Under the pieces are notes generated by a model. That model did no database searches and was not told the DNA's origin. It saw only the letters and a list, made by a program, of their open reading frames with translations. DNA of 61,462 bases. Origin: a virus (taxonomy: Duplodnaviria; Caudoviricetes). Made by a program: the position numbers and the translations under genes. The stretch lies in the IMG/VR virus record IMGVR_UViG_3300034168_000141, positions 1 through 61,462 of that record; one strand, written 5' to 3'. Within the stretch, counting starts at the first letter, position 1, and every line of letters starts with the position of its first letter. Positions 2,872 through 61,462 of the stretch are shown here, in pieces.

Positions 2872-3221
2872 GCTAACTTATTCTTAAAGTGTGTTATTAA
2901 TTGCTCCATCTTACTATCATAGTATTTAGCAAAGGTAGTAAATCCCTCTGAATCAGCCTCATAAACCCTAAACATTATTCCTCTTAATCTCTGTGATGGC
3001 TTTTTGAGTGTATCTTCTAACTCTGATTTCAAGCTTTCTACTGCATCCAGCTCCTCACGTCTAAAGCTCTCGTCTTTAAACGCAAGATACCCGAACTGAT
3101 TAGCTGTACCAAACAGCTCAGCAGCCTGAGAAGGTGTGAGCTCATTAGTGCCAAAGGTAAGTTTTAAAGTCTTATCTTTTCTTGTGCCTACTGATTCAAG
3201 CTGCGCTGGTATTAATATCAT
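2868..3221 (-). CDS. Phage hypothetical protein
   Basis: ORF coupled to neighbours by 4-nt overlaps. Confidence 0.7.
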   Translation of the reverse strand: MILIPAQLESVGTRKDKTLKLTFGTNELTPSQAAELFGTANQFGYLAFKDESFRREELDAVESLKSELEDTLKKPSQRLRGIMFRVYEADSEGFTTFAKYYDSKMEQLITHFKNKLA

Positions 3222-3613
3222 TTGTTTAATATGATTGAATTGAATTCGGTTTCTGCATTTATAATGTTATTTGTAATTTCCTTATGAAGCGTATTAATGT
3301 TAAAAGCAATTTCATAAAATTCCAATTCAATAGCATCTGCCTTAGCCATTAAACAACAGTCCAAAAAGTATTGAGTATTAATAGTAGATTGATTACCTGC
3401 ATGATATCCTAACCAAAATCCTGTTATCAAACCATCTGAATTGCCATTGTAATACAAAAATTTAAAATTATTACCTTTAATATTGCTTTTTAACATAGCC
3501 CATGAAGCACCGTCAGTTTGGAAATCATCGTCATTAATGAATCCATAGTTTTCATCAAACCATTTAATTTGATGTTCTGGAACTATTACAAGTTTGGTTT
3601 CAGTAAATATCAT
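3218..3613 (-). CDS. Hypothetical protein, AT-rich accessory gene
   Basis: 131 aa ORF, more AT-rich than flanks, no counterpart seen in B. Confidence 0.65.
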   Translation of the reverse strand: MIFTETKLVIVPEHQIKWFDENYGFINDDDFQTDGASWAMLKSNIKGNNFKFLYYNGNSDGLITGFWLGYHAGNQSTINTQYFLDCCLMAKADAIELEFYEIAFNINTLHKEITNNIINAETEFNSIILNK

Positions 3614-3622
3614 CTGTTAGTT

Positions 3623-3772
3623 TTACGATCCACAATAAAGACAGTCCTCATCTTCTGCACCCTCTCCAGCATTTAGAATCTTCTCACATTCTTTGTCAAT
3701 CTGCTGATCAGTCCAAGTAGGATTAAACATTTTCACCTGAGCCCTCAAAAAGTTATACTTATTGTCATTCAT
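3623..3772 (-). CDS. 49 aa protein ending EDEDCLYCGS (RNR-tail-like CxxC)
   Basis: Manual translation MNDNKYNFLRAQVKMFNPTWTDQQIDKECEKILNAGEGAEDEDCLYCGS; homologue at 32873..33028. Confidence 0.85.
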   Translation of the reverse strand: MNDNKYNFLRAQVKMFNPTWTDQQIDKECEKILNAGEGAEDEDCLYCGS

Positions 3773-4130
3773 TAGATTTAATTTTAAAAGTTACATCTAA
3801 TAGTGTAATTAGCTATAAGCTTTAGCTATTAACTCTATGCTTAGAGCTTAGATTCTGAGCTAAATGAGAGATAGAAGTATCCAAGCAAAAAGATTACTCT
3901 TTCTGTTGGGCTCTCATTTAAATGACTGTCTCTCTGCTTGTCGCTTGAGTTCTTTCGCCATTATGAGTTAGTGTCATCAGCAATGTGCACTAACATGGTA
4001 TCTATCTTTTAGAGTAATTGCCTACCCTAAGTAACCTGGAGCTTATACCTTAGCCATACTCCTGAGCTTTGTTACTATCCCGCAGTAGCTCGTTTCATTC
4101 TCTATGCTGCCGTTAATCGATTCCGCACAT

Positions 4131-4214
4131 AAAAAATATAGCCCTAAGGATGCAGGGTGAGAACATCCAAAGGGCGTATAAAACCTTAAATCAAATCTAC
4201 AGTAATACCACCCT
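4131..4214 (-). ncRNA. Candidate structured small RNA or attenuator leader (5' end complementary to terminator loop)
   Basis: TACATTTG box, 4 nt, AGGGUG ... hairpin GCCCU-UU-GGAUG/CAUCC-UU-AGGGC with CACCCU in the loop, then UAUAUUUUUU; same architecture at 35197-35266. Confidence 0.65.
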
Positions 4215-4218
4215 GTAA

Positions 4219-4226
4219 CAAATGTA
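4219..4226 (-). promoter_or_regulatory. Bacteroidota -7 promoter element TACATTTG
   Basis: Matches TAnnTTTG; intergenic; syntenic box at 35271-35278. Confidence 0.7.
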
Positions 4227-4262
4227 TTTAATATGTGTTACAAATTCTACCAATGTTAAAAA

Positions 4263-4454
4263 CTATTTTGGCTGTTGAAAACGTAGCACTGTAATGTACA
4301 CCCAAAATGGCAGCCATACAAGGCCTGTAAAAGCCACACCCACATAAGCGTACCAATGGTAGTTAGATAGGTGTCTCTGATGCTTGTAAATGTTCAGGCT
4401 CAGTATTCCAAAGTGTAGGATAAAGCCAATTAAATAAATGGTTAATAGTGTCAT
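4263..4454 (-). CDS. Small two-TM membrane protein
   Basis: Two hydrophobic segments; 4-nt overlap with upstream gene. Confidence 0.65.
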   Translation of the reverse strand: MTLLTIYLIGFILHFGILSLNIYKHQRHLSNYHWYAYVGVAFTGLVWLPFWVYITVLRFQQPK

Positions 4455-4966
4455 ATCTTTTTTCTTTTTGCTTTACGTTTCTTTATACGTTCAGGAGTAA
4501 TCTCTACTTGCGTTAATTCAGTTAATGCAGCCTTCTGCAAATCTTCTACTAATGATCTCTCTAATCTATCTAACAGCTCATTCATGCAGGGAGTGCAAGT
4601 AGTAAAGCTCTTGTTATCTTTAATGCCAAGATACTCACGTCTGAGTTTAAACAGCTGCTGCATCTCTCCAGCTTGTACACTTCCTCTCTTTCTAATAGCT
4701 CTAATTTGCTCAAGTGTTGGCATCTGCCATTCTTTTTGGTTGAGCGTTGGCCACTTCTTAGCTGGGCAGCTCGTTACTGCATAAGACGCTAAGTGATCTA
4801 CCGGGCAGCCACAAGGTTTAAAGACTACACCATCTAATGTAGTAGGCTGCTTAAATGGATTGATAGCATTTATTGGAGGTCCGCATGTTTTGTAACGCTC
4901 GTTAAATACAGGGCATGCCTTGCAGATATTTATCCTTGCTTCATAATCTGATGTGCTAATCATCAT
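4451..4966 (-). CDS. Cys-rich putative Zn-binding protein (DUF6171-like)
   Basis: RxxICxxC...CG...CGC...SCPxxKW plus a C-terminal CxxC; homologue 35319..35759. Confidence 0.7.
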   Translation of the reverse strand: MMISTSDYEARINICKACPVFNERYKTCGPPINAINPFKQPTTLDGVVFKPCGCPVDHLASYAVTSCPAKKWPTLNQKEWQMPTLEQIRAIRKRGSVQAGEMQQLFKLRREYLGIKDNKSFTTCTPCMNELLDRLERSLVEDLQKAALTELTQVEITPERIKKRKAKRKKI

Positions 4967-5466
4967 ATCTGTAATGAATTTCTTAGTGTTGTTTTAGCTT
5001 TCTGAATTGTCCTATAAAGATAGGCTAAAGGTATCCCTGTTTCTTTCGCCAATGCCTGATAAGAAAAATCATCTAAGGCATAGAGAAAGAATAGCTCACG
5101 CTCAAAGTATGGCAGTCTACTGATAAAGATATCTAACTGCTCATTCTCTAATCTCATCCCTACACTCTTATTCACATCATCCATGATATCATCTTTCAGA
5201 TCATTGCGTATCTTCTCAAACTTCCTCAGCGTATAATTAAAGCTGCTGTTACTACAGCGTGCAGCAAGTCTTATGCTATTGCTTACGTAATTGTTCAGCT
5301 TACCTCTGTTATGAATATCTTGCAGCTTATCCTTATCTGATTCTAATATCTTAAGTAGCGTGTCATGTAAAAGTTCATCTGCTACATCTGCACGCACTAC
5401 ACTATGCGCCACCCTGCGCCACTCTAAATAACACTTATCGAACTCAGAGCGCCAGGTATTCATCAA
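4963..5466 (-). CDS. Sigma-70/ECF-like RNA polymerase sigma factor
   Basis: Region-2-like ADELLHDTLLKI and region-4 HTH (ISRLPYFERELF...SYQALAKETGIP); homologue 35737..36240. Confidence 0.75.
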   Translation of the reverse strand: MMNTWRSEFDKCYLEWRRVAHSVVRADVADELLHDTLLKILESDKDKLQDIHNRGKLNNYVSNSIRLAARCSNSSFNYTLRKFEKIRNDLKDDIMDDVNKSVGMRLENEQLDIFISRLPYFERELFFLYALDDFSYQALAKETGIPLAYLYRTIQKAKTTLRNSLQI

Positions 5467-5788
5467 TAATTATTTGTGCCTGATCAAAGCTCTTGCATGT
5501 TACTGCTATGTAGCCTCTCTTCATTAATTTATTTTGCCATTCTTTCTGATGCTCACTCATTACACCCTTAGCTGTTTTCATTTCAATAGCTAAGCCATGC
5601 CATTCTTTTTTAGGCTCATAGATGAAGATATCAGGAAAGCCTTTAACGTATCCTGTTTTTTTCATCTTTACTGCCTGCTTCATGGAAGTTCTTACTCCTC
5701 CAGCTGAAGCACAATAAAGCGCCTTAGGATACTGCGCCACTAAATAGTTAATAACTGCTTCCTGTATTAGAGCTTCCTCATTCTTCAT
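5444..5788 (-). CDS. VRR-NUC domain nuclease (putative resolvase)
   Basis: E..IQ...KGFPD...AIEMKT.KG.MS..QKEW PD-(D/E)xK pattern. Confidence 0.85.
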   Translation of the reverse strand: MKNEEALIQEAVINYLVAQYPKALYCASAGGVRTSMKQAVKMKKTGYVKGFPDIFIYEPKKEWHGLAIEMKTAKGVMSEHQKEWQNKLMKRGYIAVTCKSFDQAQIIIDEYLAL

Positions 5789-5792
5789 GATT

Positions 5793-5800
5793 CAAAATTA
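5793..5800 (-). promoter_or_regulatory. -7 element TAATTTTG, 4 nt before the ATG at 5788 (possibly leaderless mRNA)
   Basis: TAnnTTTG consensus. Confidence 0.5.
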
Positions 5801-5817
5801 GCTAATTAACTTATCCT

Positions 5818-5849
5818 CTATCCACATCTTGTTAACATACTTATTCACA
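5818..5849 (+). promoter_or_regulatory. Cluster of DnaA-box-like 9-mers
   Basis: CTATCCACA 5818, TTGTTAACA 5829, TTATTCACA 5841 (last fits TTWTNCACA); 11-12 bp spacing. Confidence 0.45.
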
Positions 5850-5863
5850 TATGATTTAATCAA

Positions 5864-5871
5864 TATATTTG
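5864..5871 (+). promoter_or_regulatory. -7 element TATATTTG driving a plus-strand non-coding transcript
   Basis: TAnnTTTG consensus on the non-coding strand, followed by a terminator ~55 nt downstream. Confidence 0.65.
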
Positions 5872-5875
5872 GCTA

Positions 5876-5957
5876 TCCATTTTAGCCTTTTGGTTTAGGT
5901 TTAGATTGATTATTGATTGCTGAATAGCCTTGCAAACGTGCAGGGCTATTTTGTTTT
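5876..5957 (+). ncRNA. Candidate trans-acting sRNA complementary to early-gene translation initiation regions
   Basis: Promoter, U/G-rich core TTTTGGTTTAGGTTTAGATTGATTATTGATT, intrinsic terminator; core matches 9752-9772 and 10168-10177. Confidence 0.55.
5923..5957 (+). terminator. Intrinsic terminator (may also terminate terL on the minus strand)
   Basis: AATAGCCTTGCA-AACG-TGCAGGGCTATT followed by TTGTTTT. Confidence 0.75.
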
Positions 5958-7275
5958 AAATGAATGCGTACTTCGTGTAGTTCCTATTCAGCTCAAAGTA
6001 AGCTCTCATCATAATAGCATCTGCTATATCGGGAGATATCCCTCCGGTGCGCTGGCTGATTGTATCCTTAGAAGTAACTCGCAGCTTTCCTTCCTTATCA
6101 GGATCTACTCTTCTCACTAACTCCAGCTCTTTAATAATATCTTCCTGATATTTAATGGGGAAGGTAATCTCATTCTTATCTATGAGCTCACCTAATCTAA
6201 AGTAGCAGTCAGCTTTTAGATTCATGTACTGAGTGCCTCTTACTGCTTTGCTACCATTCATGAATTCTCTGCACCTAAGACTATCTACCAATCCACCGCC
6301 TACCCCATCAGCATCTGCAAGCACGTTGCTAAGTCTAATGCTGTGAGTGTTCATTAATCTTTGTATCTCTGCCTTTACTTCATCTTGTCTTTTTTGCTTA
6401 AGCACTACTATATCAATACAGCTTAATCCCTTCCATACACAAAGCACAGTTCTATCTTTACCCAAACGTGCTATATCCGCAGTGATGTATCCCTCTCCTA
6501 CATTCATTGGCTCTCTAAAGCAGCGCACTAATTCATCATACATATAAAGTCTATCTGAGCTGTTATCAAATTCCCAATCTCCCTCTAAGAGTCTCTTCCT
6601 GTCCGCTTCAGGTAATCGGCTAAGGCTTGTTACGTAGGAATCGGGTAAGTGTATATTATCACCAGGTAGCGCTTGAATAAATGCCCTGTGTTGGGGTAAA
6701 TTCTGATTCTTATAGGGTAAGTAGAATTGGTTATAGATCCATCCCTTTGAAGGATTGCAAGTGAGTAATATCTTAGGCTTAAGCCCAAACTCGTTTAGCT
6801 TGTACCTGATACGTGAGCTAACAATAGAATAAGCTTTCTCAGTTATCTCTGTAGCTTCGTCAATAAATGCATCTGTAATTTCAAGGCCACCTAAATCAGT
6901 CATCATCGGATCTGATGGATACAAAAACAAATCGGCTAAAATAATCTCTGAGCCATTGCTGAATTTAATGATATGGCTCTGCTGATTATAAATGAAATCT
7001 TCGCCTGCCTTTAAGCCTATTTCATGAGCCACCTGAAAGAAGGTAGCCATGGTAGTCTTTTTAAGCGTATCTAATTTAGCTCGGCCTATGAGAGATCGTG
7101 TACCTGGATACTTTAAGCGCCTAAGAATTTGCCACATGCAGCCAAGCATAGTCTTACCCCCTCCTGCTGCTCCTCCATAGAGAATAGTCTCAACGTCTGA
7201 ATCTACTGAAAGAAATTTAAGTGCCTCGCTTTGCCTTGTTAGTGGCTTAAAATTATAATCTATTTGTCTCTCCAT
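5956..7275 (-). CDS. terL: Terminase large subunit
   Basis: Walker A GGAAGGGKT, Walker B FIDE, TCNP coupling motif, nuclease DIARLGKD...SPDIADA. Confidence 0.95.
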   Translation of the reverse strand: MERQIDYNFKPLTRQSEALKFLSVDSDVETILYGGAAGGGKTMLGCMWQILRRLKYPGTRSLIGRAKLDTLKKTTMATFFQVAHEIGLKAGEDFIYNQQSHIIKFSNGSEIILADLFLYPSDPMMTDLGGLEITDAFIDEATEITEKAYSIVSSRIRYKLNEFGLKPKILLTCNPSKGWIYNQFYLPYKNQNLPQHRAFIQALPGDNIHLPDSYVTSLSRLPEADRKRLLEGDWEFDNSSDRLYMYDELVRCFREPMNVGEGYITADIARLGKDRTVLCVWKGLSCIDIVVLKQKRQDEVKAEIQRLMNTHSIRLSNVLADADGVGGGLVDSLRCREFMNGSKAVRGTQYMNLKADCYFRLGELIDKNEITFPIKYQEDIIKELELVRRVDPDKEGKLRVTSKDTISQRTGGISPDIADAIMMRAYFELNRNYTKYAFI

Positions 7276-8138
7276 TGCACAAAATTAGGTACAATGAGGT
7301 GAGTATCAACAGGTTTCTTAATTCTTTCTAAATTTAATTCTAATAGATAAGCACCCAAAGGTTTAGGAGGTCTCATACGCTCTACGTGAAAGCCCATAAA
7401 GCCCTCATCATACTCTTCTTTATAACTTGCTGTTCTAATGTGATGCACATATCTCATGTTAATTCTATAGCCTGAGTTACTTGCATAGCATAACTCTTCT
7501 ACCATATCAGCATGATGGTAAAGTTCATGCACATGGCCGGTCCAAATGCAATCAGCTCCATCTATCATTACACCCATACGGTTATTCTGAATTACTCCCT
7601 TAGTAACTACTCCTCCTCCTCCTGATCCATGATAATACTTTGTCTTAAATACAAAAGTGCTCGTCTTAGTAGCTTGCACTCTATGTATCCACCAACCGCC
7701 ATAACCACCTACTAATACATTAGAGTTAGCTTCTCGGTTTAATCCACTTACAAATCTCTCTATTAAATCAGTTTCACAGTTCTTTATAATTGCAGTCTCA
7801 TGGTTACCATATCCCACAAATATCATCAAATGAGCATAAGGCTTAAACCAATCTATCGCAGTATTAACTAAAGCATCTAAGTAATTAGCTACGTTATGCT
7901 CCGGTAGAATATCCTGCTTACTTCTACGTGGATCATACTTGCCCTGCATGCAGCAGAACAAATCACCATTAACAGCAAAAGAAATATTTTCTTCTAAGCA
8001 CTTATCTAAATGCGCTTTAAGTAGCTTTCTATCGCAATGGGGATTATCCCAGTGCAGATCACTCATCATTAAAAACTTATCACCGCTTTTGCAAGTAGTA
8101 ACTATGACATTTCTACCCTCTCGATATGATGTAATCAT
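7260..8138 (-). CDS. Calcineurin-like metallophosphoesterase
   Basis: SDLH, NGD, GNHE, YHG, GHVH motifs. Confidence 0.85.
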   Translation of the reverse strand: MITSYREGRNVIVTTCKSGDKFLMMSDLHWDNPHCDRKLLKAHLDKCLEENISFAVNGDLFCCMQGKYDPRRSKQDILPEHNVANYLDALVNTAIDWFKPYAHLMIFVGYGNHETAIIKNCETDLIERFVSGLNREANSNVLVGGYGGWWIHRVQATKTSTFVFKTKYYHGSGGGGVVTKGVIQNNRMGVMIDGADCIWTGHVHELYHHADMVEELCYASNSGYRINMRYVHHIRTASYKEEYDEGFMGFHVERMRPPKPLGAYLLELNLERIKKPVDTHLIVPNFVQWRDK

Positions 8139-29857: not shown

Positions 29858-32101
29858 TTATACTGTTGGAAATATAGTTACTTCTCCTGTTATATTAGTT
29901 TGCGGTGGAAACAAAGAATAAAATGTACAACTTCCTGCTGTTACGTCAACTTGTGGTAACATACCGCAGGTAGTAACCTCTGAATAACTAGCATTACCTG
30001 GAGTAAAATCTACTCGGGTATTAGTTGTTATATTAACATTTGAAAATGTATATGTATAATATCCACTTACTAAAACCCAGCTTGCAGCTGTTAGTGTCTG
30101 AGCTGTTAATTTATATATTGTACCTCCACCTCCGCCACCACCCGAATACTGCGGAATGTTTAATGTAGCACCTACCAAAGTAGCTGCGCCACTTGTTCCT
30201 GTTGTAGTTAAAGTGAGCGTGTCTTGCTTAGCGTTTAATGCTGTTTGCGTTGCAGTTGAGATAGGCTTGTTAAGATCGCTTGTGTTGTCTACATTGGCCA
30301 AACCTACTGCTGTTTTGTCTAATGTTTGAAACGTCTTATCGCCTCTGTAATAATCGCCTGTTGTTCCTGCCGTAATCGTTGGCTCTACTGCTATATTACC
30401 ACTACCCAAAAGAGTAGTGCTATTGACAGTCTTTATATTAGTATTGCTAACGAGTAGATCTTGCTTTCCATTAAACGTAGTCCAATCCGCAGAACTTAAT
30501 GCGCCTCTATTCGCTGCGCTTGCTGTTGGAAGGTTAAACGTATGCGTACTTGTCGCAGATGAGATACCGAAGTCAGTGCCACTCGTTCCAGTTGCGAAGT
30601 TCTGCACCTGTGCAGTTAAGCCATTCAATGCAGTTAAGCCTGTTGAGAAGGTAGTTATTACTTCACACAGGTGACTGTTTTCGGTGTGGAGTGTAATCGT
30701 TCTGCCCGAGTGCGTAACGTATATTCTAACCGCTAATCTATCAGTAGCCGCTAACGTAGTTTGAGGTATAGCTAACGCACTAACATAAAGGTCTATTGCC
30801 GTTCCGTTGGTGATGCCTTCGGGAGTAGCTGAATTAGACGCTATCAAAGATAAGGTTGCTCCATCCCATTTATACAATTCAATATAAAATGAAGGAGTGC
30901 CACCGCTACTTGATGCGCTGAAATATGTTTCAAAGTTCCAATTTCCTCCAGGTATCTCTAATAGATTTGGAACATTCGCATCTGTGATAAAAGATTGAAT
31001 GTAACCGTCTGCTGCTATTGTGAAATCTGTTCCTGCACCTAAGACAGGAGTTCTGTCCATTTCCTTAAATGCTACACCTCCAAATGTACCTTGCGCTACT
31101 GATCCGTTGAGGTAAAATGTTAAAGAAGAACCACCGCCTGATGAAGCAGGGAAGTTAGCCAAGCTACCATCACCTCTCACATATTGTGATACAGTACCTG
31201 CTCCTGTAACCGCTATATCTCCACTACTTGTAATGGGACTATTCGCTACACTAAATGCGGAAGGCATTGTTAAGCCCACGCTTGTAACTGTTCCAGTTGG
31301 TATTGTCGGAAGGTTGTCGAGGTCGTTATAGTTGTTGCTGAAACCAACCGCGCTGATGCTGGTGATGTCAGCCTTCAAAAGTATTTCTTCTTCGAGTGCG
31401 TCAATGGCTGCTTCAATGTCTATAATAGTTTGACAATCACCAATCGTTTCGCAGGTTAATCCACTTGCTTCAAGTAAGTACCAACCGCGCACTCCTTCCT
31501 CGTCCGTTCCGTAGTAATAGTTTGGTGCTGGTGTTGCCTCATCATTCACTAACGACACGTTGCCGTTCTCGTCGCGTGTAATTGAATCAATGAACGTTAA
31601 GATTGAACCCGTACCACCGCTTCCGCTTTCAAAAAAGTCGTTCCACTCCGCAGGAATTGAACACGCGTCCCAATAATAAGGAACAAGCAATTCAAGACTA
31701 ATCGTCCAACCTGTTAACGTGTTGTGAAATTCTTCAAGGAAGGGTTCTAACGTGACATTTTGCACCGTGATTAAGTCGCCAAACAAAACGCGGTGGTTTG
31801 TTATCTCGGCAACTAAATCTTCAGCTATGCGTTGAAGGTCAGAAAGAACCTCACGTTGAAACTCAACCTTGTCGTCTTTATCTCTAGGAAGATCCGCAAG
31901 GACAATCTGAAAAGAGAATGTCTTAGTACCTTTTGCGTAAGTAACGTTCGAAGGTACAACGTGCATAAATGGATATTCGGTAAACTTTTCAAGGTCTGCC
32001 GTGTCAATCTGACCATGTGAAAAGGTCTTAAGAATAAAGTGTCCAGAGGCAAATGCCTTGAATCTATCTATAAGTGCGTTGTAGCTTTGTACGTTCGACA
32101 T
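29858..32101 (-). CDS. Fibre protein; as assembled, B-type N-terminus joined to A-side C-terminus through the shared segment
   Basis: 747 aa ORF spanning the A/B junction; Gly/Thr-rich fibre motifs (VGLANVDNTSDLNKPISTATQTALNAKQD). Confidence 0.8.
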   Translation of the reverse strand: MSNVQSYNALIDRFKAFASGHFILKTFSHGQIDTADLEKFTEYPFMHVVPSNVTYAKGTKTFSFQIVLADLPRDKDDKVEFQREVLSDLQRIAEDLVAEITNHRVLFGDLITVQNVTLEPFLEEFHNTLTGWTISLELLVPYYWDACSIPAEWNDFFESGSGGTGSILTFIDSITRDENGNVSLVNDEATPAPNYYYGTDEEGVRGWYLLEASGLTCETIGDCQTIIDIEAAIDALEEEILLKADITSISAVGFSNNYNDLDNLPTIPTGTVTSVGLTMPSAFSVANSPITSSGDIAVTGAGTVSQYVRGDGSLANFPASSGGGSSLTFYLNGSVAQGTFGGVAFKEMDRTPVLGAGTDFTIAADGYIQSFITDANVPNLLEIPGGNWNFETYFSASSSGGTPSFYIELYKWDGATLSLIASNSATPEGITNGTAIDLYVSALAIPQTTLAATDRLAVRIYVTHSGRTITLHTENSHLCEVITTFSTGLTALNGLTAQVQNFATGTSGTDFGISSATSTHTFNLPTASAANRGALSSADWTTFNGKQDLLVSNTNIKTVNSTTLLGSGNIAVEPTITAGTTGDYYRGDKTFQTLDKTAVGLANVDNTSDLNKPISTATQTALNAKQDTLTLTTTGTSGAATLVGATLNIPQYSGGGGGGGTIYKLTAQTLTAASWVLVSGYYTYTFSNVNITTNTRVDFTPGNASYSEVTTCGMLPQVDVTAGSCTFYSLFPPQTNITGEVTIFPTV
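30446..31294 (+). repeat. Shared fibre-gene segment, copy 1 (identical core 31095-31234)
   Basis: Aligns at constant offset 30241 with 60687-61462 and continues into 107-179; differences mostly synonymous. Confidence 0.95.
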
Positions 32102-34911: not shown

Positions 34912-35196
34912 ATAAGTTAAATATATTATTGTGCTAATTTACTTCAGTTGTTCCTTTTGTGTCACTAAACTTATTGACTGTCTTAAATGTGCAAAGAAAA
35001 CAAAACAAACAAAAACAAAAAGGTAAAACAAAAAGAAAGAAAAGAAAAAGTCTCCCCAAGAAAAACAAACTGTCTTTGCTCTTAAAAGAGCAGTTGCGCG
35101 ATCCAAGCATTGATGTATTGCAAGTGTAGTCATTGGTTACTTCGCTGTGACTTACGAAGGAGGTTGTTGTTCTTATCCAGTTTGTTTCATTTACTT

Positions 35197-35266
35197 AAAA
35201 AATATACCCCCAATTGTTTCTAGCCGCCAAGCAAAAACAAAAGGGGGTAATAAGTTATTACTTGGC
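35197..35266 (-). ncRNA. Candidate structured small RNA or attenuator leader, homologue of 4131-4214
   Basis: TATATTTG, 4 nt, GCCAAG ... CCCCC-UU-UUGUUUU/GAAACAA-UU-GGGGG with CUUGGC in the loop, then UAUAUUUUUU. Confidence 0.65.
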
Positions 35267-35270
35267 TATA

Positions 35271-35278
35271 CAAATATA
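35271..35278 (-). promoter_or_regulatory. -7 element TATATTTG
   Basis: TAnnTTTG consensus, syntenic with 4219-4226. Confidence 0.7.
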
Positions 35279-35318: not shown

Positions 35319-35759
35319 TTAATTGTTCAAATCAACATCGACATCTTTCATTGATTCAAGAAACGTATTGATGTCTTTCTTAACGCAAGGCGGACACGTT
35401 GAACGCTCGTTGAACGCTCCTGTGGCTTTATCCTTAAAATAATAAAACTTTAACATATCTTTCTGCTCTAAACGTCCCTGAGCCTTCATATCGAGCAAGA
35501 ATCGTTTGAACTCTATTTGTTCGTCCATTGAAAGAACACCGTTCCATTTAGACGCTGGACAAGATGCGAAGGCGAGTTTTGCTTTGACTGGCATGACACA
35601 ACCACATAACTTAATTGACTTCTTGCGGAATAGAACTTCAGTTTCTACTTCGTCGCCTAAAATTAAAGTACCGCACGACTGCGTTGAAGGTTCGAAGAAT
35701 TTGCAAGCACGACAAATGTCTAACCTGCGTTTGTACTCATTGTGTTTTGCGAATAACAT
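35319..35759 (-). CDS. Cys-rich putative Zn-binding protein (DUF6171-like)
   Basis: RLDICRAC...CG...CGC...SCPASKW; homologue 4451..4966. Confidence 0.7.
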   Translation of the reverse strand: MLFAKHNEYKRRLDICRACKFFEPSTQSCGTLILGDEVETEVLFRKKSIKLCGCVMPVKAKLAFASCPASKWNGVLSMDEQIEFKRFLLDMKAQGRLEQKDMLKFYYFKDKATGAFNERSTCPPCVKKDINTFLESMKDVDVDLNN

Positions 35760-60140: not shown

Positions 60141-61462
60141 TTAAAAGTATTTTGTTAATAAAGCTGCTTCAGTTCTTGCGGTATCACCTCCACCCACTGT
60201 TCTTATACAAAACAACAAATAATTATCAACAGTTGTATTGAATGGTGTTGTCATCATTTGATCTGCAACGAAATCTGTAAGTTGAGCTCCAGTAGTCCCA
60301 AAGTAACATAAATTACCAGCTGTTAAATGAAAATTTCGTGTAAGAGTTGCATAAGTTTGAGTCGTGCCTATTGTCGGACAAGCTGCTACTATAATTGCTC
60401 CTGATAAACTATTTGATGTGTTTAGAAAAGCAGAACCAGTAATACCACTTGCAGCACCTGTAATTCTTTTTACTTTGTAAATAACTTCTAACATAGAATT
60501 ACTTGTTAATGTGTTTGCAGGTATTAAAACTGACAAACTAATTATTTGAGTAAATGGAGTACCAACAGTTGCACCACCTGTTGTATTTATATAAACTGTT
60601 GAGGGATTACTGCTTCCACCTCCTCCTACTACTAAATCCCCACTACCAAGCAACGAGTTGCCGTTAATAGTCTTGATGTTAGTACCGCTAACGAGTAGAT
60701 CTTGCTTGCCATTAAACGTTGTCCAATCCGCAGAACTTAATGCGCCTCTATTGGCTGCGCTTGCTGTTGGAAGGTTAAACGTATGCGTACTTGTCGCTGA
60801 TGAGATACCGAAGTCAGTGCCACTCGTTCCAGTTGCGAAGTTCTGCACCTGTGCCGTTAAGCCATTCAATGCAGTAACACCTGTTGAGAAGGTAGTAATG
60901 ACTTGACAAAGATGACTATTTTCAGTATGAAGTGTAATCGTTCTGCCTGAGTGCGTAACGTAGATTCTTATTGCTAACCTATCCGTTACCGTTAACACTG
61001 TTTGCGGTACTGCTAATGCACTAACGTAAAGGTGTATTGCCGTTCCGTTGGTGATGCCTTCGGGAGTAGCCGAGTTAGACGCTATCAAAGACAATGTTGC
61101 TCCATCCCATTTGTATAACTCAATATAAAATGAAGGAGTGCCACCGCTACTTGATGCGCTGAAATATGTTTCAAAGTTCCAATTTCCTCCAGGTATCTCT
61201 AATAGATTTGGAACATTCGCATCTGTAATAAAAGACTGAATGTAACCATCTGCTGCTATTGTGAAATCTGTTCCTGCACCTAAGATAGGCACTCTGTCCA
61301 TTTCCTTAAACGCTACACCGCCAAATGTTCCTTGTGCTACTGATCCGTTGAGGTAAAATGTTAAAGAAGAACCACCGCCTGATGAAGCAGGGAAGTTAGC
61401 CAAGCTACCATCACCTCTCACATATTGTGATACAGTACCTGCTCCTGTAACCGCTATATCTC
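60141..61462 (-). CDS. Fibre protein, 3' part (5' part lies across the circular junction)
   Basis: Frame is open to the window end and continuous with 1..1712; the track's start at 61421 is an internal Val. Confidence 0.85.
   Translation of the reverse strand, partial: DIAVTGAGTVSQYVRGDGSLANFPASSGGGSSLTFYLNGSVAQGTFGGVAFKEMDRVPILGAGTDFTIAADGYIQSFITDANVPNLLEIPGGNWNFETYFSASSSGGTPSFYIELYKWDGATLSLIASNSATPEGITNGTAIHLYVSALAVPQTVLTVTDRLAIRIYVTHSGRTITLHTENSHLCQVITTFSTGVTALNGLTAQVQNFATGTSGTDFGISSATSTHTFNLPTASAANRGALSSADWTTFNGKQDLLVSGTNIKTINGNSLLGSGDLVVGGGGSSNPSTVYINTTGGATVGTPFTQIISLSVLIPANTLTSNSMLEVIYKVKRITGAASGITGSAFLNTSNSLSGAIIVAACPTIGTTQTYATLTRNFHLTAGNLCYFGTTGAQLTDFVADQMMTTPFNTTVDNYLLFCIRTVGGGDTARTEAALLTKYF
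60687..61462 (+). repeat. Shared fibre-gene segment, copy 2 (continues across the origin to 179)
   Basis: Near-identical to 30446-31221. Confidence 0.95.
61357..61462 (+). repeat. Terminal direct repeat, right copy
   Basis: Identical to 1-106. Confidence 0.97.

Follow-up and report, generated by a model that had tools for sequence, protein, structure and literature searches.

IMG/VR record IMGVR_UViG_3300034168_000141, a stretch of 61,462 nucleotides (nt) of caudoviricete phage DNA to which we refer as the window, holds two copies (A and B) of an RNA element whose predicted 5' end pairs with the loop of its own terminator-like hairpin. The window consists of two diverged phage genomes of about 30 kb arranged head to tail, genome A (1-31115) and genome B (31116-61356), each with one copy on the minus strand (Table 1). 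The order of parts listed for both genomes in an initial annotation, made from the letters alone, holds for both copies: a promoter box, four nt, a hexamer, a linker, a hairpin with a UU/UU internal loop whose apical loop carries the complement of the hexamer, and a U-rich tail. Since the loop pairs with a strand outside the hairpin, and does so with compensatory changes, the fold is an H-type pseudoknot. Based on the covariation of this fold, its recurrence in related phages and the conserved RNA modules that follow it, we read the element as a promoter-proximal terminator that is clamped by a pseudoknot and heads a structured leader before small-terminase genes, a reading to which we assign a probability of roughly 0.4.

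In copy A, the spacer TTAC separates the box from the 5' pseudoknot strand, which forms the predicted 5' end of the transcript and whose allelic variants in relatives stay complementary to the loop. The hairpin comprises a lower stem GCCCU/AGGGC, a 2x2 UU/UU internal loop, an upper stem GGAUG/CAUCC and the 11-nt loop TTCTCACCCTG, and the pseudoknot pairing reads CAGGGTG/CACCCTG. The linker core TTGATTTAAGG is largely kept in A-type copies. Copy B has the spacer TATA, a linker of 13 nt and 8-9 pseudoknot pairs including G.U. Both pairings slightly exceed the hexamers given in the initial annotation. The sequence that copies A and B have in common is limited to the box, the U.U loop and the tail; the sigma proteins of the two genomes are 37% identical (56/152 aligned residues), and the proteins encoded after them 23% (32/139). 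In either copy, a G+C-rich hairpin stands directly 5' of a U-rich tract on the transcribed strand, which are the features of an intrinsic terminator and would let transcription end there. The U tract word occurs four times in the window against 0.76 expected, and two of the four occurrences are those at the two elements. The initial annotation had proposed an H-type pseudoknot RNA of about 70-85 nt that is bounded by its own promoter box and terminator, and the predicted limits of both copies agree with this proposal.

The support for the structure comes from covariation and not from folding energy. Our alignment of 40 distinct B-type copies contains 19 pairs, eight of the pseudoknot and eleven of the hairpin, and each of the 760 cells (760/760) holds a standard pair; the pseudoknot helix, columns 14-21 with 51-58, contributes 320/320. 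Seven pairs are changed on both sides, namely four of the eight pseudoknot pairs and three in the stem. No shuffled alignment (0/500) reached the observed values of cells paired, cells changed on both sides or covariation score, and 7/500 reached the observed count of pairs changed on both sides. When the partner was slid by one to three columns as a control, pairing amounted to 39-56%. A-type copies that begin with AUG (22 distinct) keep the six core pseudoknot pairs in 22 of 22 cases, and two of these pairs change on both sides: pair 16-80 is CG in 17 and UA in 5 copies, pair 18-78 CG in 11, UA in 6 and AU in 5. Their outer four pseudoknot pairs are formed only in some alleles, which brings the overall value to 80.8%. 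The claim that both the stems and the pseudoknot vary in a compensatory manner is thus confirmed by the B-type alignment as well as by the A-type core.

The hairpin of the A clade was judged from per-sequence folds rather than from the model-fitted alignment. Folding sequence by sequence recovers the hairpin with its T run in 46 of 46 structural classes. The internal loop is UU/UU in 34 of these classes and UCU/UUU or UUU/UUU in three; a continuous helix is found in five, four of them with a tandem U-G step that replaces the loop, and AA/GC in the three classes of a further type, C, which is described below. From a manual reading of the alleles, we count about 19 pairs of pseudoknot words in three sequence-unrelated types, with at least ten in the B clade. 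Examples are CAGGGUG/CACCCUG, CAUGUGUGAG/CUCACACAUG, AUGCGC/GCGCAU, CAUGCGACA/UGUCGCAUG, GCCAAGCA/UGCUUGGC, GUCAAACCU/AGGUUUGAC, GUCAAGUG/CACUUGAC and CUCGAUU/AAUCGAG. Within type B, the two pseudoknot strands have identities of 0.74 and 0.67 and the two hairpin arms of 0.93 and 0.96; the linker, in most copies a short one of 7-12 nt, is the least conserved segment (0.48). The alignment also indicates the strand: its 21 U-G cells would become C.A mismatches on the opposite strand, and as such cells are tolerated on one strand, the RNA corresponds to the minus strand of the window.

Two further observations concern the pairing partners of the loop. In type B, a pseudoknot loop base covaries also with a base on the 3' side of the loop (alignment A4, columns 19, 53 and 60; 53-60 is CG in 26 and UA in 14 copies). 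In type C (L090:4504-4595), the loop word can pair with either the 5' end or the 5' arm of the upper stem, and all three change together between alleles. The triple covariation of type B and the choice of partner in type C hint at alternative conformations.

Related loci were collected by means of the sigma factor gene that precedes the element. A search of viral contigs with the genome A sigma protein, in alignment with its genome B counterpart, yielded 273 relatives, and the 80 best were retained; with the genome B protein, 108 relatives were obtained and 79 loci retained, so that the best 159 of roughly 380 entered the analysis. Our strict descriptor required the box, then a hairpin of terminator type with a T run behind it, and it required the loop to form six or more Watson-Crick pairs with the 18 nt that follow the box. 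Applied to both strands of the window, it matches at copies A and B only. Viral contigs with TATATTTG, 55-85 nt and TATATTTTTT served as control; of at least 116 such loci, 80 were examined, and the descriptor passes one of them (1/80), whose layout is unlike that of the element. Among the 159 related loci, the design is present in 137. Another 20 stop less than 1200 nt past the sigma gene, before the site is reached, and two reach the site yet fail the descriptor. One of these, L054, pairs only with G.U allowed and is found by the covariance model R1 (see below). The other, L105, is a natural hybrid: it combines the 5' strand of one allele with the loop of another, and the two are mismatched. 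No second case of this kind is seen in the 139 loci long enough to include the site. With 137 loci and about 19 word pairs, the 5'-loop complementarity is kept in further homologues, as the initial annotation had supposed.

Covariance models proved useful within a type. Model R1, built from the A type with the hairpin only, finds 71 of 81 sources, 68 of them at full length and three truncated where the locus stops. Copy B was missed by this model at E <= 0.01, and the idea of one covariance model for all types was rejected. Neither copy can be assigned to a known family, in line with the initial annotation: Rfam 15 covariance models gave no match at the gathering score in the whole window. At E <= 10, only four sub-threshold matches were obtained in 3600-4500, two of which overlap the element, suhB/mmgR with 18.6 bits against 41 and Betaproteobacteria-1 (4034-4137), whose overlap is the U tract only. 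Literature searches brought up no comparable phage RNA.

Type C is a third, sequence-unrelated RNA of the same design, which occurs in 14 B-clade loci on the strand opposite to the sigma operon. An example, L090:4595-4504 (minus strand), reads TATATTTG, AATA, CUCGAUU, a long hairpin with AAUCGAG, and then a U tract; a second allele of this type carries CUCGUUAA/UUAACGAG. One contig, L099, holds two copies with different alleles in opposite orientation, 3952-4035 (plus) and 5805-5887 (minus). BLAST similarity to relatives mostly begins at the box, and the flanks after the U tract vary independently of the RNA type. Together with the orientation of type C, this indicates that the element is exchanged as a modular unit rather than forming just the 3' terminus of the sigma operon.

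A study on Flavobacterium psychrophilum (PMC9723704) places the sigma-A box TAnnTTTG at -12 to -5, so that +1 would be the fifth base after the box, i.e., the A of AGGGUG in copy A. Of the 43 A/B classes, 32 have the start of pairing four nt past the box, and the others deviate from this place by no more than two nt. As pairing starts at the predicted +1, the extreme 5' end of the predicted RNA is the paired strand. The box is the best-conserved segment of the element (identity 0.93-0.97), and the same type of box precedes open reading frames (ORFs) elsewhere in both genomes; inspection of the sequence revealed no clear -33 element at the usual spacing. Promoter activity and the start site are predicted. 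A second -7 box in the linker of copy A (TAGATTTG, 4199) was considered as a pause element or promoter and rejected, because it is not kept in relatives. As a separate observation, -7 boxes (TAATTTTG) at 5800-5785 and 7287-7272 (minus strand) lie exactly four nt before the ATG of the VRR-NUC and the large-terminase genes; if the box occupies -12 to -5 there, the mRNAs of both genes would be leaderless.

Behind every copy of the element lies a conserved noncoding module of one of a few kinds. Module X, present in 32 A-clade and 20 B-clade loci according to a word test, matches the Betaproteobacteria-1 model (RF02932) along the full length of its 120 positions, with 28.6 bits in the window at a gathering score of 49.4; among eleven related loci scanned, five show it with 28.5-33.4 bits, likewise below 49.4. 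It has the words CGG...ACGGCAGC, CUGnGGGA and UGGC.AAG and three helices in common with that family. It differs in its phylum context, in its sub-threshold score and in helix P1, which is built from the U tract of the preceding terminator. RNAalifold on 38 distinct X copies predicts the three helices, with 5 of 18 pairs changing on both sides. P1 joins the terminator U tract with a purine run 25 nt further on and comprises nine pairs, with 341 of 342 cells paired; pair 13-36 is CG in 15, GC in 13 and AU in 10 copies. The interval from the U tract to module X contains no TAnnTTTG box. Since P1 covaries while using the U tract, and no box stands between, RNA that is read through the terminator is under structural selection. 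Module X may extend Betaproteobacteria-1 to phages of Bacteroidota type and tie this family to packaging genes. The main text of its discovery paper (PMC5737381) gives no function and does not contain the name.

Module Y follows copy B in the window; in all, 27 loci of the A clade and up to 36 of the B clade have it, genome B among them. Its hairpins appear compensatory by eye, CUGAG...CUCAG in some copies versus CUUCG...CGAAG in others. Four Y-type loci that were scanned (L034, L071, L114, L134) gave no Rfam match at E <= 0.5. Modules X and Y stand ahead of the same downstream genes. The word AAUGCUUGG of module Y resembles the loop word of type B and was considered as a pairing partner; it was rejected, as it is constant across alleles.

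The features found universally, i.e., the box, the 5' strand at +1, its loop complement, the hairpin interrupted by U.U and the U tract, suggest that the function lies in the fold. As this fold is universal, as the read-through RNA is selected, and as the site lies between the sigma module and the packaging genes, we favor the clamped terminator. The element would then be a self-contained transcription unit of a phage of about 30 kb with a Bacteroidota-type host. The host sigma-A box would start an RNA in which the apical loop of the intrinsic-terminator hairpin is paired with the initial 6-10 nt, and most transcripts would end at the U tract, giving a compact RNA of 70-100 nt with its 5' end locked onto the terminator loop. 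The remainder would read through into the structured leader, X or Y, and then into small ORFs and small-terminase-like genes. In this way, the element, placed just after the phage genes for the sigma factor and the cysteine-rich (Cys-rich) protein and ahead of the packaging genes, would set the amount of early host-sigma transcription that enters the leader and the packaging genes.

Several points weigh against this interpretation. No alternative antiterminator pairing was found, and the complementarity ends at the loop in types A and B, so that termination may be merely leaky rather than regulated. A plain terminator needs no pseudoknot, so the RNA product itself may matter. In type C loci, the RNA is directed away from the terminase genes, and only a 75-aa ORF of no known family follows. 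In a further clade, whose sigma protein is 42% identical, no box candidate with the design was found within 2 kb after the sigma gene in five loci; in the same loci, a box lies closely upstream of the next reading frame. As regards the structure, copy A folded singly is unexceptional (z -1.58; 13 of 200 shuffles equal it; compare copy B in Table 1), and on the model-fitted alignment the A-clade hairpin is only 77.7% paired, with one subtype two columns out of register.

The main rival, which we consider nearly as probable, is a stable small RNA (sRNA) that stands on its own. Here, the pseudoknot would hide the 5' end and brace the terminator, and the nuclease-resistant RNA would accumulate and act in trans, either by pairing with RNAs of the host or as a decoy or sponge whose shape is recognised by a protein; transcription past the terminator into X or Y would then be a by-product or serve another function. 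This is in good agreement with an element that has its own promoter box and terminator, stands in either orientation and is exchanged as a module, and that across three types keeps its fold and not its sequence. The short linker of most B-type copies leaves little but the fold. A precedent is RydC, whose pseudoknot, according to PMC4337610, is needed for stability in vivo, with a half-life of about 2 min when the fold is broken. On the other hand, a common single-stranded seed is missing, and the B linker is the least conserved segment of all. The linkers of A and B, scanned for duplexes against their own genomes, have no partner above the level of shuffled linkers, and the 6-7-mers complementary to gene leaders are just A-rich words of low complexity. 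The sRNA reading also leaves unexplained why a promoterless structured RNA always follows and uses the U tract. The two roles named by the initial annotation, attenuator and stable sRNA, both remain the leading readings, and the attenuator gains indirect support from the structural selection on the read-through RNA.

We regard it as improbable that the two words form an intermolecular specificity code, in which the 5' strand and the loop dock the RNA on copies or nascent transcripts of the same allele, with some 19 variants. The outcome would be an allele-specific control of read-through, i.e., immunity or incompatibility as in P4 CI, P1/P7 c4 or plasmid RNA I, or a self-assembly like that of phi29 pRNA. 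If true, this would amount to an RNA-only self/non-self control of read-through into packaging genes, or of replication or packaging itself, and to a counterpart in virulent phages of plasmid incompatibility RNAs and of P1/P7 heteroimmunity. The many alleles among close relatives of the B clade fit well with such a code, as does contig L099 with its two alleles. The pseudoknot strands of the B clade vary far beyond the hairpin arms, although this could just reflect added constraint on the arms. Pairings of 9-10 nt within an 11-nt loop (e.g., in L009) look too long for a closed loop on steric grounds; however, an intramolecular pairing of 6-8 bp appears sterically possible at the observed loop lengths and would compete with pairing in trans.

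The search for targets speaks against the code. In the three genomes with a rating of 98-100% complete (G001, G002 and G007), the element's two sites account for every occurrence of the 9-nt words GUCAAACGU and GUCAAACCU; additional copies in G003, G006 and G008 lie in inconsistent places (ten whole records examined). Within 3 kb of 84 elements with a pairing word of at least 7 nt, no second site covaries with the allele. The word CAGGGTGG in the sigma gene (5416-5409) was rejected as a target, as it is present in only some loci and unchanged between alleles. No integrase or repressor was recognised in a PHROGs scan of the 69 window proteins (19 + 28 + 22), most of which are unannotated. The likeness to P4 CI or P1 c4 control that the initial annotation had drawn is not upheld by these results, as the pairing words lack further conserved copies both in nearly complete genomes and in the 3-kb flanks.

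It is very improbable that the element merely terminates the sigma operon and stabilises its 3' end, with TAnnTTTG inactive and the upstream strand as part of a 3' untranslated region. Types A and B do follow the sigma/Cys-rich operon on the same strand, no earlier terminator was seen, and the want of an evident -33 element would agree with an inactive box. Against this stands type C, which shows the same spacing from box to strand on the opposite strand in 14 loci. Moreover, the box is better conserved than any other segment and marks the 5' limit of similarity to most relatives, and the start of pairing four nt past it would be unexplained if it were not a promoter. Least probable of all, to a degree that we hardly credit it, is a DNA-level element (an origin, packaging or recombination site of inverted repeats) or a chance resemblance: the long noncoding region adjoining the terminase genes and the TAGCT/AAGCT-rich repeats 300 nt further on would suit the former, but G.U is tolerated on one strand only, box and U tract flank the fold in the right order, the three-part non-nested pairing covaries, and the descriptor passes by chance at the 1/80 rate of the control loci.

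Table 1. Positions of the two copies, their parts and associated features in the window (- denotes the minus strand).
Feature	Position	Strand	Basis or remark
Copy A, whole element	4226..4131	-	read from sequence
Copy A, -7 box TACATTTG, Bacteroidota sigma-A type TAnnTTTG	4226-4219	-	mean pairwise identity 0.93, 40 distinct A-type rows
Copy A, 5' pseudoknot strand (C)AGGGUG	4215-4209; AGGGTG 4214-4209	-	complement of 4153-4159
Copy A, linker, 33 nt, A/U-rich (GUAUUACUGUAGAUUUGAUUUAAGGUUUUAUAC)	4208-4176	-	mean identity 0.69
Copy A, terminator hairpin GCCCT-TT-GGATG / CATCC-TT-AGGGC	4175-4141	-	minimum free energy and centroid fold; listed as terminator-like site
Copy A, 3' pseudoknot strand CACCCUG in apical loop	4159-4153; CACCCT 4159-4154	-	complement of 5' strand
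Copy A, U tract UAUAUUUUUU (DNA TATATTTTTT)	4140-4131	-	doubles as 5' strand of module X helix P1
Module X, structured RNA directly after or overlapping the terminator	4034..4140 (model match 4034-4137)	-	sub-threshold relative of Betaproteobacteria-1 (RF02932)
Copy B, whole element	35278..35197	-	read from sequence
Copy B, -7 box TATATTTG	35278-35271	-	mean identity 0.97, 40 distinct B-type copies
Copy B, 5' pseudoknot strand GCCAAG(UAA)	35266-35258; GCCAAG 35266-35261	-	alignment columns 14-21 pair with 51-58 in 40/40 sequences
Copy B, terminator hairpin CCCCC-UU-UUGUUU / AAACAA-UU-GGGGG, 15-nt loop TTGCTTGGCGGCTAG	35247-35207	-	fold z -3.03; 11 stem pairs, 100% of cells paired
Copy B, 3' pseudoknot strand (UUG)CUUGGC in loop	35234-35226; CTTGGC 35231-35226	-	complement of 5' strand
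Copy B, U tract UAUAUUUUUU (DNA TATATTTTTT)	35206-35197	-	direct reading
Module Y, noncoding structured region	35052..35196	-	hairpin CUUCG-UAAGUCACAG-CGAAG, second hairpin, long-range closing stem
Cys-rich protein	4451-4966 and 35319-35759	-	8 invariant Cys

On the 5' side of the element, the same strand encodes a VRR-NUC protein, a sigma factor similar to the extracytoplasmic function (ECF) type (PHROG 1740; Sigma70_r4_2) and the Cys-rich protein; genome A also has a 63-aa ORF with the look of a membrane-spanning protein from its sequence. The Cys-rich protein shows a weak DUF6171 match, its Atlas look-alikes are all viral hypothetical proteins, and its AlphaFold model has a mean predicted local distance difference test (pLDDT) score of 56.7. 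Its gene overlaps the end of the sigma gene, as is often the case for anti-sigma factors. On the 3' side, about 290-360 nt without ORFs on the element's own strand follow in every copy, and the next ORF differs by type: one of 49 aa, a methyltransferase, or one of 75 aa. Beyond the ORF-free stretch lie small ORFs, a ParB-methyltransferase (genome B) and small-terminase-like helix-turn-helix proteins; the phages encode TerL and TerS-like genes. A cluster of short repeats of the TAGCT/AAGCT type is located at 3790-3860 (minus strand), in noncoding sequence ahead of the 49-aa ORF. These repeats could be protein-binding sites, as of a region for packaging or an origin.

The IMG/VR record that makes up the window bears a terminal repeat of 106 nt. 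Its relatives are single contigs of 29-31 kb, some of them with terminal repeats and an estimated completeness of 100%, and the record of 61 kb is probably a chimeric assembly. The identical 106 nt occur at 1-106, 31116-31221 and 61357-61462, and the junction of the two genomes falls inside a tail-fibre gene. A BLAST search with 3200-7300 against the 'phages' collection gave as sole match a 141-nt stretch of TerL from Flavobacterium phage 11b. In a scan of a genome collection, one contig of 1.9 kb was found, binned with a Cytophagaceae metagenome-assembled genome and too short to include the site of the element. This contig and the promoter type point to a host among the Bacteroidota. The element family was found in freshwater phages.

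Taken from its sequence, the element is best described as a pseudoknotted small or leader RNA of an unusual and very well supported design. The sRNAs and leader RNAs of Bacteroidota phages are almost unexplored, and the larger noncoding locus, formed by the element together with X or Y, links a Betaproteobacteria-1-like RNA to phage packaging genes. The design is short, its tertiary pairing is proven by covariation, hundreds of natural variants exist, and natural alleles allow an exchange of parts. Should the pseudoknot determine termination or the stability of the RNA, it would offer a new portable build for terminators or attenuators in a phylum whose promoters are unusual and which does not use Shine-Dalgarno sequences.

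Among known phage RNAs, P4 CI and P1/P7 c4 are small RNAs in which short complementary words decide the function and allelic differences give specificity. They are cut from longer transcripts in an RNase P-type manner, pair with target words elsewhere in the transcripts of their own phage, and belong to temperate phages or plasmid prophages. Here, in contrast, no conserved copy of either word is present elsewhere in the genome, a box and a terminator belong to the RNA itself, and Rfam gives no match. Type III toxin-antitoxin RNAs (ToxI-like) consist of tandem RNA repeats between a promoter and a terminator, directly followed by the gene of an endoribonuclease toxin; our element differs from them, as it contains no tandem repeats and the next ORF is remote and varies by type. 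The pRNA of phi29 combines low sequence conservation with a conserved fold and covarying loop words; it sits on the portal of a phage that lacks a small/large terminase pair, where loops of different molecules pair with one another. The element resembles it as a phage noncoding RNA with a conserved fold and covarying complementary words, but is found in phages with TerL and TerS-like genes.

RydC, an enterobacterial sRNA of about 65 nt, is similar in being a short RNA with its own terminator and a conserved pseudoknot fold that is needed for stability in vivo (PMC4337610). RydC, however, exposes a free 5' seed and uses Hfq, whereas the 5' end is paired here, with no conserved unpaired 5' segment, and the element has neither sequence nor Rfam similarity to it.

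In the pR'-tR' unit of phage lambda, a promoter is followed by a terminator within about 100-200 nt, and the product is the '6S' late leader RNA unless read-through occurs by Q antitermination. The unit is located just after a regulator gene and before the late and packaging genes, and its antitermination depends on a Q-family protein encoded upstream as well as on a Q-binding element and, early in the transcribed region, a sigma-dependent pause. No pseudoknot that joins the 5' end of the short lambda RNA to the terminator loop is known. A Q-like protein, a Q-binding site and a pause element are features of lambda, and the orientation of type C is unfit for a fixed late operon. While not a member of that system, the element resembles pR'-tR' in its layout, with a promoter, a near terminator, a regulator gene before it and packaging genes after it.

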